Source: Candidatus Iainarchaeum sp. (lineage in GTDB: Archaea; Iainarchaeota; Iainarchaeia; Iainarchaeales; UBA10191). Taken from it: 64,000 nt of DNA. The stretch lies in the NCBI GenBank assembly GCA_030649735.1, contig JAUSFL010000008.1, positions 64,001 through 128,000 on the forward strand, in the 5' to 3' direction. The position numbers and the translations under genes are program-made. Positions 2,774 through 55,833 of the stretch are shown here, piece by piece. The notes beneath the pieces were generated by a model, which was not told where the DNA came from, did not search any database, and was given only the letters and a program-made list of their open reading frames with translations. Numbering within the stretch: position 1 is the first letter of the stretch; each line of letters opens with the position of its first letter.

Positions 2774-4204
2774 TTAGCCTTTCATAACGCCTAATGGCCT
2801 TAATTTTACCACGATTTTTCCAATTCCCGCAAGCTCCACGCTTTTCACAACTTCATCAACGTCCTTATATGCTTCAGGCATTTCTTCAGCCAATCCTTTA
2901 ATGCTCAATGCTTTCACAATCTCGCCTTTTGCCTCCAGTTCTGCCTTCACTTGCGCTCCGCTTTTTTGCTGCATTGCGCCATGCCTTGACATTACCCTGC
3001 CTGCTCCGTGACAAACTGATCCAAAGCTTTCTTCCATTCCCTTTTCAGTTCCCACAAGCACATAGCTTGCAGTTCCCATAGAGCCCGGAATTATTGCTGG
3101 ATGGCCTGTTGAGCGATAGACTTTTGGATTGTCCTTGTGCTCTGCAGGGAAAGCGCGCGTGGCGCCTTTCCTGTGCACTAGAACTTCCTTTTTTTTGCCG
3201 TCAATCCTGTGCTTTTCAAACTTTGCAATATTGTGTGACACATCATACAAGTGGTTTAAGCCCAGTGATTCAGCATCTTGCTTGAAAACATGCTCAAAAG
3301 CTTCCCTAACCCAGTGCATCATTGCCTGCCTGTTCGCGAAAGCAAAGTTTGTTCCCGCATTCATTGCATTCAAGTAATCCTGGCCTTCCTTTGAAGAAAT
3401 CGGCGCGCAAGCCAATTGCCTGTCTGGAACTTGAATGTTGTACTTTTGCATTGCATTGAGCATTGTTTCAATGTAATCGCTTGCAATCTGGTGCCCGCAG
3501 CCCCTGCTGCCTGAATGAATCATGACAACAATTTGCCCTTCTTTCAAGCCGAAGGCTTTTGCAATTCTTGCATCCAGGATTTTCTCGACTTTTTGCACTT
3601 CAATGAAATGGTTTCCGCTGCCTAGAGTGCCAATTTGCGGCATTCCCCTCTGCAATGCCTTTATTGAAACCTTGCTAACATCAGCCTGCTTTAAACAACC
3701 GTAATCTTCAATTCGTTCAAGATCTTCCTTCCACCCATAGCCTTTGTTCACTATCCATTCTGCGCCTTGCTCCAAGACTTCCTTTAGTTCCTTGTCGCTG
3801 AGCTTTAGCTTTCCCTTGCTTCCGACTCCGGATGGAATTTGCTTGAACAATTCATCCATTAATTCCTTCAATTTTGGCCTGATTTCTTTTTCATTCAAAT
3901 CAGTCAGCAAAACCCTGACTCCACAGCTTATGTCAAATCCAACTCCGCCAGGGCTTACAATCCCTTCCTCCAAGTCAAAGGCGGCCACTCCGCCTATGGC
4001 AAATCCATATCCATTGTGCACATCAGGCATGGCAATTGAATATTTTTGAATTCCCGGAAGCTCTGCTACGTTTTTAATTTGCTGAAGTGCGCCTTGCTCC
4101 ACAGCGGTTACAATTTTTTCAGTGCCAAAAATTCTCCCAGGAACCCGCATTTTGCCTTCTTGGGGAATCTCCCAAATTGCTTCTGAAAGTTTTGTGGCAG
4201 TCAT
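2774..4204 (-). CDS. rtcB: RNA-splicing ligase RtcB
   Basis: Motifs MPDVHxGYGFxIGG, DISCG, GSGNHF, HSGSRG, HRKGA, HGAGR; start placed at MTATK. Confidence 0.97.
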   Translation of the reverse strand: MTATKLSEAIWEIPQEGKMRVPGRIFGTEKIVTAVEQGALQQIKNVAELPGIQKYSIAMPDVHNGYGFAIGGVAAFDLEEGIVSPGGVGFDISCGVRVLLTDLNEKEIRPKLKELMDELFKQIPSGVGSKGKLKLSDKELKEVLEQGAEWIVNKGYGWKEDLERIEDYGCLKQADVSKVSIKALQRGMPQIGTLGSGNHFIEVQKVEKILDARIAKAFGLKEGQIVVMIHSGSRGCGHQIASDYIETMLNAMQKYNIQVPDRQLACAPISSKEGQDYLNAMNAGTNFAFANRQAMMHWVREAFEHVFKQDAESLGLNHLYDVSHNIAKFEKHRIDGKKKEVLVHRKGATRAFPAEHKDNPKVYRSTGHPAIIPGSMGTASYVLVGTEKGMEESFGSVCHGAGRVMSRHGAMQQKSGAQVKAELEAKGEIVKALSIKGLAEEMPEAYKDVDEVVKSVELAGIGKIVVKLRPLGVMKG

Positions 4205-49764: not shown

Positions 49765-49901
49765 TCCCGCCTCCCAGATTTGCACTGGGGACCTTCCGGT
49801 TCCCGCGCCCAGTCCATTTTGGAAAGGGCCAAAGGCATCAGAAAAATTTCTGACGTTCTAATTCTACAGCCGGACGCTCTAACTAACTGAGCTAAGGCAG
49901 G
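49765..49901 (-). tRNA. tRNA-Tyr(GUA) with 63-nt intron at 37/38 (49801-49863)
   Basis: C1-G72 acceptor CCTGCCT/AGGCGGG, A73, stem TCCGG/CCGGA; central helix CTGT/GCGG with bulges. Confidence 0.92.
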
Positions 49902-55593: not shown

Positions 55594-55665
55594 GAGAAAC
55601 CGATTATAGGAAAAGAATTCTTTTAAATAAAAAGTTATGCGCTTTAGCGTAATTTTCAGAATAAT

Positions 55666-55739
55666 TGGGGCTGCACGGATTTGAACCGTGGTTTTACGCT
55701 CCCTAAGCGTAGGTCCTAACCAGGCTAGACTACAGCCCC
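55666..55739 (-). tRNA. tRNA-Pro with AGG anticodon
   Basis: GGGGCTG/CAGCCCC-A acceptor; stem TACGC/GCGTA with loop TT-AGG-GA; 4-nt variable loop; CACGG-TTCAAAT-CCGTG. Confidence 0.92.
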
Positions 55740-55762
55740 AAAGTTTCCGTCATTTAATAAAA

Positions 55763-55833
55763 ATTGGCCTCAGTTTGCCCATCTCTCTTCATTCCCGAAG
55801 GTTGGAGTCATCGTCAGTTCATCATCGGCCAAT
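55763..55833 (-). ncRNA. Box C/D methylation guide sRNA
   Basis: Terminal stem ATTGGCC/GGCCAAT, C box ATGATGA, C'-like ATGAAGA, D box CTGA, two guides of about 12 nt. Confidence 0.8.

Follow-up and report, generated by a model that had tools for sequence, protein, structure and literature searches.

The stretch of DNA analysed here, referred to below as the window (64,000 nucleotides), contains two tRNA genes recognised by ARAGORN, one of which is called as tRNA-Pro(AGG) on the minus strand at 55665-55740. The Rfam tRNA model RF00005 matches the gene interval listed in Table 1 along its entire length (model positions 1-71) with 61 bits and an E-value of 9e-11, the gathering score of the model being 29. 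The cloverleaf has an acceptor stem of 7 bp, a D stem of 4 bp, an anticodon stem of 5 bp (UACGC/GCGUA) and a T stem of 5 bp; read 5'->3' on the minus strand, the anticodon loop is UUAGGGA and the discriminator base is A. The wobble A is nucleotide 36 of the gene and appears as T on the plus strand. A previous inspection of the letters alone (hereafter the sequence-only reading) had described an intact cloverleaf with the loop TT-AGG-GA and A34 at base 55704, and this description is confirmed by ARAGORN, by Rfam and by the independent contigs considered below. With its NGG anticodon, its G37 and a body like that of the other proline tRNAs of the lineage, the gene is a tRNA-Pro gene, and it also scores as a proline tRNA with our covariance model R1, which was built partly from the same gene. 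G35, G36 and A73 are the main identity elements for ProRS.

Table 1. Features of the tRNA-Pro(AGG) locus in the window, and the deaminase-family gene located elsewhere in the genome.
Feature	Position	Strand	Source or remark
tRNA-Pro(AGG) gene, 74 nt, without intron and without encoded CCA	55666..55739	-	ARAGORN, Rfam RF00005
Anticodon AGG (A34 = 55704, G35 = 55703, G36 = 55702)	55702..55704	-	sequence, Rfam alignment
U33 and G37, flanking the anticodon AGG	55705 (U33), 55701 (G37)	-	sequence, Rfam alignment
A/T-rich box AATTTTTATTAAAT, possible TATA box, 13-26 nt upstream of the mature 5' end	55752..55765	-	sequence
160-aa TadA/guanine-deaminase-family protein	contig C49:52367-52849		outside window

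The gene is solitary and is flanked by two minus-strand protein genes, which encode a trypsin-like protease of 587 aa and a protein of 1097 aa that carries Ig-like and fibronectin type III domains. The A/T-rich box upstream of it is a possible TATA box, although by eye it lies approximately 10 nt nearer to the gene than is the case for most other tRNA genes, when the upstream regions of the 38 tRNAs found by ARAGORN in this genome are compared. A scan for bacterial-type promoters and terminators around the gene returned none, the signal types being bacterial and the host archaeal. An origin from a mobile element was considered and rejected: nothing points to an island, the 3' end of the gene does not recur in the window with up to 3 mismatches, and the GC content near the gene is ordinary. 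At another location in the window (49765-49901, minus strand) Rfam detects a 137-nt intron-bearing tRNA (47.3 bits), which ARAGORN in intron mode interprets as a putative tRNA-His(GUG) with a 63-nt intron; an intronless tRNA-His(GUG) gene is present elsewhere on the contig.

A wobble A at this position might be produced by a sequencing or assembly error or by a chimera of tRNA-Pro paralogues, given that the acceptor, D and T arms are identical among the three tRNA-Pro genes of this genome and could mislead an assembler. In the Logan contigs of sequencing run X1, the likely source of the assembly, a 6309-base contig covers 55667-56100 with zero differences and spans the gene together with 360 bases of unique upstream sequence. 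In run X2, which originates from a different study, a 114-base contig covers 55682-55795, again with zero differences, and connects the anticodon region with unique sequence upstream of the gene. T>A and T>G changes at 55704 (plus strand) are present in X1 as the UGG and CGG paralogue contigs, which carry 4-5 further differences, and the depths of the AGG, UGG and CGG contigs are similar (17.3, 15.5 and 13.2, respectively). The identical loop UUAGGGA is found in two related genomes, G001 and G010. A34 is therefore upheld in contigs built independently from the two runs, and an assembly error, to which we give a very small probability, can for practical purposes be dismissed.

The window belongs to the metagenome-assembled genome (MAG; G000) of a tiny groundwater archaeon, which comprises 1.28 Mb in 51 contigs, with 41.6% GC, 92.7% completeness and 2.3% contamination. 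The genome is archaeal: the archaeal SSU rRNA model matches over its full length (1374 bits), several tRNA genes carry introns and a tRNA-splicing endonuclease domain is present, which among the controls was matched in the four archaeal genomes only. Rfam finds 41 tRNAs in the genome, and ARAGORN in several modes calls three proline tRNA genes, with the anticodons AGG (in the window), UGG (contig C22) and CGG (contig C41). No tRNA-Pro(GGG) was detected among the 41 Rfam matches or in any of the ARAGORN runs on this 92.7% complete genome. Since ARAGORN shows that G34 is retained in the Thr, Val, Ala, Gly, Leu, Ser and Arg boxes, A34 occurs in the proline box alone, as a substitute for G34. The question of whether Pro(GGG) has been replaced, which the sequence-only reading had raised, is thus answered for this genome by the presence of AGG and the absence of GGG, and an A34-for-G34 replacement of the type described for ARMAN-4/-5 is found here in another archaeon.

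To place the gene among its relatives, we used 215 species genomes of the phylum, 196 of which belong to the order. A search of 40 relatives with this tRNA as the query revealed mostly UGG, CGG and GGG proline tRNA genes, the exceptions with AGG being G010 and G001. G010 (78% complete), from another family of the same order, carries a complete and quite different tRNA-Pro(AGG) gene with the loop UUAGGGA (Rfam 54.5 bits), which is the sole A34 tRNA among its 43 tRNAs; it is accompanied by UGG and CGG, without GGG. In G001, which belongs to the same genus as G000, a 5' exon of an AGG gene (G001:C36 726-765, minus strand) is 38/40 identical to its G000 counterpart and has the same loop, and A34 is accordingly common to both species of the genus. 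This exon is followed by approximately 170 nt of intron-like repeats and then by an NN scaffold gap, and the 3' half of the gene was not found at the locus; the gene could be split, broken or interrupted by a long intron. The exon sits between homologues of the genes that flank the UGG gene of G000, and no Pro tRNA is found beside the G001 homologue of the protease that adjoins the AGG gene of G000, an arrangement possibly indicative of an exchange of anticodons among the paralogous loci. Because the proline model recovered zero Pro tRNAs from G001, this genome was left out of the GGG counts.

Both genomes of the sister genus (G002 and G003) carry GGG, and the swap is therefore placed on the branch leading to this genus. 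With strict patterns, GGG is found in at least 29/196 genomes of the order, AGG in at least 2/196 and both together in 0 genomes, and across the phylum AGG is found in at least 3/215 genomes from three different families; the counts for either anticodon are lower bounds, because genes with introns, for example those of G001 and G045, escape the strict patterns. Judged from these patterns, AGG appears to be rare and scattered within the phylum. As a separate observation, contig C11 of G010 (2792-3315) carries Met, Asp, Lys, Ile-UAU, Arg-UCU and Phe tRNA genes head to tail within approximately 520 nt, an array that is unusually dense for a 0.5-Mb archaeon.

When prokaryotes were scanned with the pattern at one genome per species, at least 120 matching stretches were obtained. 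ARAGORN called tRNA-Pro(AGG) in 102 of the 120 matches listed and otherwise in 18. Among the matches listed, 94 were bacterial tRNA-Pro(AGG) genes, mostly from Lachnospiraceae and Cytophagales/Cyclobacteriaceae, often situated beside tRNA-Pro(UGG) or tRNA-Pro(CGG), and eight were archaeal, from Woesearchaeota (2), Micrarchaeota (2), Parvarchaeota (1), Pacearchaeota (1), Aenigmatarchaeota (1) and one other archaeon. Natural genes for tRNA-Pro(AGG) are common in some bacteria. Seven of these eight archaeal genomes among the matches listed have an assigned lineage, which is DPANN in every case. In total, 11 AGG-bearing archaeal genomes were considered (G000, G001, G010 and G041-G048), 10 of which are informative once G001 is set aside. 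The covariance model R1 of DPANN proline tRNAs was built from 38 sequences, 8 of them with AGG, and was used to search G001, G010 and G041-G048. In the R1 alignment 99.1% of the cells pair and 15/21 pairs have changed on both sides, which implies that the AGG genes have been kept as tRNAs.

GGG was found in 0/10 of the informative AGG-bearing archaeal genomes (G000, G010 and G041-G048) by R1 or by ARAGORN/Rfam, and in each of them AGG occurs together with UGG and/or CGG. The swap is thus recurrent in DPANN, AGG without GGG being found in nine archaeal genomes of this group besides G000. With regard to other ANN anticodons, a further check suggested by the sequence-only reading, none is present in the G000 or G010 sets. 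G043 has a second A34 tRNA, a tRNA-Leu(AAG) (L176 88-170, minus strand; loop CUAAGGA; Rfam 58.3 bits), and its Pro(AGG) plus Leu(AAG) combination resembles the pair in ARMAN-4/-5. The Aenigmatarchaeota tRNA-Pro(AGG) gene (L109 300-440, minus strand) is interrupted in the D-loop by an intron of approximately 60 nt that is rich in AAAGAAA-type repeats, and its 5' exon was missed by both ARAGORN and Rfam.

The gene most similar to the AGG gene of a given genome is the UGG gene of that genome, the two being identical at 70/74 positions in G000, 71/75 in G047 and 68/74 in G042, while in G048 they differ at nucleotide 34 only. In G000 the identity to tRNA-Pro(CGG) is likewise 70/74. Most GGG genes of the order are built on a different body, with the loop UUGGGGU and often the T arm GAGUUCGAAUCUC, whereas the body and T arm of the G000 AGG gene match its own UGG gene. 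The anticodon stem UACGC/GCGUA of the G000 gene is also present in the GGG tRNA of G039, and the 3' strand of this stem with the variable-loop bases that follow it is present in a partial GGG match of G026. The sequences would fit either of two origins, namely a duplicated UGG gene in which U34 changed to A, or a mutated GGG gene that was later homogenised with its paralogues.

Proline codon usage was determined from 13,154 proline codons in 1039 long ORFs of G000, which comprise 31.3% CCU, 8.0% CCC, 41.0% CCA and 19.7% CCG, giving a CCU to CCC ratio of approximately 4 to 1. In seven AGG genomes (G000 and six others, the latter sampled at approximately 40 kb each) GC content is 33-42% and CCC accounts for 6-15% of proline codons; thus, AGG is seen only where CCU clearly outnumbers CCC. 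The corresponding ranges in 13 GGG-bearing relatives are 30-52% GC and 4-47% CCC. Since low-GC genomes that have kept GGG (G004, G038 and G039) show the same CCU-rich usage, codon usage allows for the swap without explaining it. Relative to the other boxes, the median proline C/(C+T) is 0.76 in the seven AGG genomes and 1.20 in the 13 GGG genomes (Mann-Whitney p 0.011), a difference that we rejected as evidence of adaptation because the ratio tracks GC, because related genomes are being compared and because the ORFs were called crudely.

We then considered whether A34 could be deaminated to inosine. The earlier statement that no deaminase is visible holds for the window but not for the genome, in which three genes of the CDA fold are present, encoding a dCMP deaminase, a cytidine deaminase and a 160-aa protein with HGE and PCPMC motifs (Table 1). 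The best NCBIfam match of the 160-aa protein is TadA (NF008113), with 61.3 bits against a cut-off of 150 and over residues 10-107 only, where TadA proper scores above the cut-off along its full length, including the C-terminal helices. Its best relatives in the PDB are Staphylococcus aureus TadA (2b3j, E 4.9e-22) and Bacillus subtilis guanine deaminase (1wkq, 4.3e-21), the matches ending near residue 107-113. The gene is located in a cluster (C49:50247-53311) with genes for NDK, a phosphoribosyltransferase, the dCMP deaminase and a CYTH protein, and these nucleotide-metabolism neighbours (NDK, phosphoribosyltransferase and dCMP deaminase) suggest that the 160-aa protein functions in nucleotide salvage. 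The same cluster contains a glycosyltransferase-like and a thymidylate synthase-like ORF, both labelled by eye. In G001 the syntenic dCMP-deaminase and CYTH genes are present and no 160-aa gene follows them.

Relatives of the 160-aa protein occur in 7/40 genomes of the order, four of which have GGG, two UGG only and one no Pro tRNA at the threshold; AGG is found in none of these seven. The family contains 423 proteins at E<=1e-10 among 479 candidates, is distributed over DPANN archaea and Patescibacteria, and carries the automatic names nucleoside deaminase, TadA and guanine deaminase, several of the TadA labels originating from JGI; the best 120 of the 423 are 51-63% identical. One member (G030:C81:1435-2078) is encoded approximately 260 nt from a tRNA-Pro(GGG) gene, which is the only association between the family and a Pro tRNA that was seen and is probably a coincidence. 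Proteins of this type are present in 2/11 AGG-bearing genomes, namely G000 and G045, the G045 copy being 57% identical to that of G000. No PF00383 deaminase was detected at E<=0.01 in 6/11 AGG-bearing genomes (G010, G042, G043, G046, G047 and G048), which does not amount to proof that the CDA fold is absent because these genomes are incomplete MAGs. PF02137 (ADAR/ADAT1-type) gave zero matches in 5 genomes and was equally silent in the controls, so this search is uninformative. Taken over the genomes searched, no deaminase was found whose distribution follows that of AGG.

The sequence-only reading had offered either an unrecognised deaminase or decoding by unmodified A34. Both alternatives remain apt and we consider the second of these to be the probable one, with the gene encoding a working tRNA-Pro that replaced GGG and with CCU and CCC decoded by an unmodified A34. 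According to this model tRNA-Pro(AGG) would have taken the place of tRNA-Pro(GGG) in a low-GC DPANN archaeon and its wobble A would stay unmodified, pairing in Watson-Crick fashion with the common codon CCU and also reading the rare CCC, while tRNA-Pro(UGG) and tRNA-Pro(CGG) would cover CCA and CCG. Reading of CCC by A34 may be possible because of the two strong G:C pairs that a proline codon forms, and these would also explain why A34 sits in the proline box alone here. In Salmonella, a tRNA-Pro with a G34A substitution reads CCC nearly as well as the wild-type tRNA does (Chen et al., 2002), an ability that the authors linked to the two G:C pairs of the codon, as described in excerpts of PMC3711424. 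An unmodified tRNA(AGG) in E. coli is reported to read CCU and CCC approximately equally, and all four proline codons are detectably read (excerpts of PMC11066159). We infer that the archaeal gene is expressed, that its product is charged with proline, that A34 escapes modification and that its codon range is as proposed. Among the points against this interpretation are that A:C wobble reading has been shown on bacterial ribosomes only and that the spacing of the A/T-rich box is atypical.

Gene content cannot separate A34 from I34, since AGG, UGG and CGG without GGG is the exact set that accompanies inosine in eukaryotes. An unlikely alternative is that A34 is deaminated to give a tRNA-Pro(IGG) reading CCU, CCC and CCA, the enzyme being either the 160-aa protein or a member of an unrecognised family; the comparison with eukaryotes has also been made for ARMAN-4/-5 in PMC3239211. 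The CDA-fold protein of G000, which is nearest to TadA and guanine deaminase, its copy in G045 and the TadA labels within its family are consistent with this alternative. Set against them are the restriction of the TadA match to the catalytic core, the nucleotide-metabolism context of the gene and its absence from the syntenic position in G001. The distribution is also discordant, as the family is large while AGG is rare, its relatives within the order accompany GGG in four of seven genomes and AGG in none, and more than half of the AGG-bearing genomes yielded no CDA-fold gene; moreover, tRNA-Arg(ACG) is described in PMC3711424 as the specific substrate of bacterial TadA. The narrower proposition that DPANN carriers of AGG make inosine with a deaminase not recognisable as TadA or ADAT is, in our estimation, a long shot. 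A rather improbable third possibility is that the AGG gene is a nearly neutral duplicate of the UGG gene, with UGG reading all four codons by superwobble, GGG lost and AGG adding little or being on its way out. The near-identity of AGG and UGG genes within genomes would suit such a scenario, as would the atypical A/T box spacing and the G001 locus, where an AGG 5' exon with its intron-like sequence and gap occupies the position syntenic with the G000 UGG gene and no 3' half was found; furthermore, a single tRNA-Pro(cmo5UGG) sustains viability in Salmonella according to excerpts of PMC8879553. A drifting duplicate, on the other hand, would be expected to gather changes beyond position 34, and A34 is shared by both species of the genus. 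An intact and co-varying AGG cloverleaf is maintained in at least 10 genomes from several DPANN lineages, never together with GGG, which argues against a redundant duplicate.

The "undescribed decoding system" that had been proposed for this locus does not stand, given previous reports of tRNA-Pro(AGG) in ARMAN-4/-5 (PMC3239211) and of decoding by unmodified bacterial tRNA-Pro(AGG) (PMC3711424; PMC11066159). According to the excerpts of the first of these, tRNA-Pro(AGG) and tRNA-Leu(AAG) replace the G34 isoacceptors in ARMAN-4/-5 (Fujishima et al. 2011, NAR 39:9695, PMC3239211). G000 shares with these organisms its DPANN affiliation, the wobble A and the absence of the synonymous G34 tRNA, and differs from them, as they are described there, in belonging to a different phylum-level group and in having A34 in the proline box only. 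The G000 gene is another DPANN lineage's case of an oddity described in 2011. A full-text literature search combining DPANN, A34 and tRNA returned no paper that by its title concerns DPANN A34 tRNAs, and archaea are said to lack A34 tRNA genes in the excerpts of PMC11066159 and PMC8879553.

The Salmonella proL G34A tRNA-Pro(AGG) and the orthogonal E. coli tRNA(AGG) have the same anticodon as the G000 gene, and their A34 has been shown to be unmodified (excerpts of PMC3711424 and PMC11066159), whereas for G000 the unmodified state is our proposal. These bacterial examples are a laboratory mutant and an engineered tRNA that work on bacterial ribosomes, in contrast to the natural archaeal gene that replaced GGG. 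A natural example in another box is tRNA-Thr(AGU) of Mycoplasma capricolum, which has an unmodified A34 and as the main tRNA of its box reads all four codons (excerpts of PMC3711424). Like the G000 gene it is natural, serves a four-codon box and belongs to a reduced AT-rich genome; it is bacterial and decodes threonine, whereas the G000 gene is archaeal and decodes proline, with the unmodified A34 proposed. The natural tRNA-Pro(AGG) genes of Lachnospiraceae, Cytophagales/Cyclobacteriaceae and other bacteria have the same anticodon and loop on bodies of bacterial type. Bacteria have TadA. Eukaryotic tRNA-Pro(IGG) is made by the heterodimeric ADAT2/ADAT3, and eukaryotes have A34 in seven or eight boxes; although the proline gene set is identical (AGG, UGG and CGG, with GGG absent), G000 has A34 in one box and the ADAT2/3 pair was not found in its genome.

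Compared with these systems, what is new is a wider map, covering at least five DPANN groups that have names, together with the findings that GGG is strictly excluded, that A34 is restricted to proline in two full tRNA sets, that the AGG gene closely resembles its UGG paralogue and that none of the deaminases detected follows AGG. The value of the locus is mainly that of one more well-documented case and a wider map of occurrence, not that of a new system. The G000 gene, like its counterparts scattered across DPANN, is a natural exception to the rule that A34 is missing from archaeal tRNA genes. If A34 is unmodified, these genes would demonstrate in nature what has so far been shown with laboratory mutants only, namely that in the proline box an entire proteome can be served by a wobble A, and would illustrate how easily anticodons swap in small AT-rich genomes. 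If A34 is instead converted to inosine, archaea would possess an undiscovered wobble deaminase; should this be an enzyme unrecognisable as TadA or ADAT, it would imply an independent archaeal origin and overturn the view that archaea lack wobble inosine.

Another feature of the tRNA set, the arrangement for decoding AUA, is shared with ARMAN, for which tRNA-Ile(UAU) without TiaS is described in the excerpts of PMC3239211. A tRNA-Ile(UAU) gene is present in G000 (contig C16:20509-20584) and also in G001 and G010, and no TiaS_FLD domain (PF08489) was found in the 92.7% complete G000, although it was matched in all four archaeal controls. Finally, three tRNA-Lys(UUU) genes are located at contig ends in G000 (C11:1934-2008, C20:1434-1508 and C49:35-109). 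Their first eight bases and their upstream and downstream flanks are identical, and the trio may represent a repeat at which the assembly breaks, or redundant contigs.
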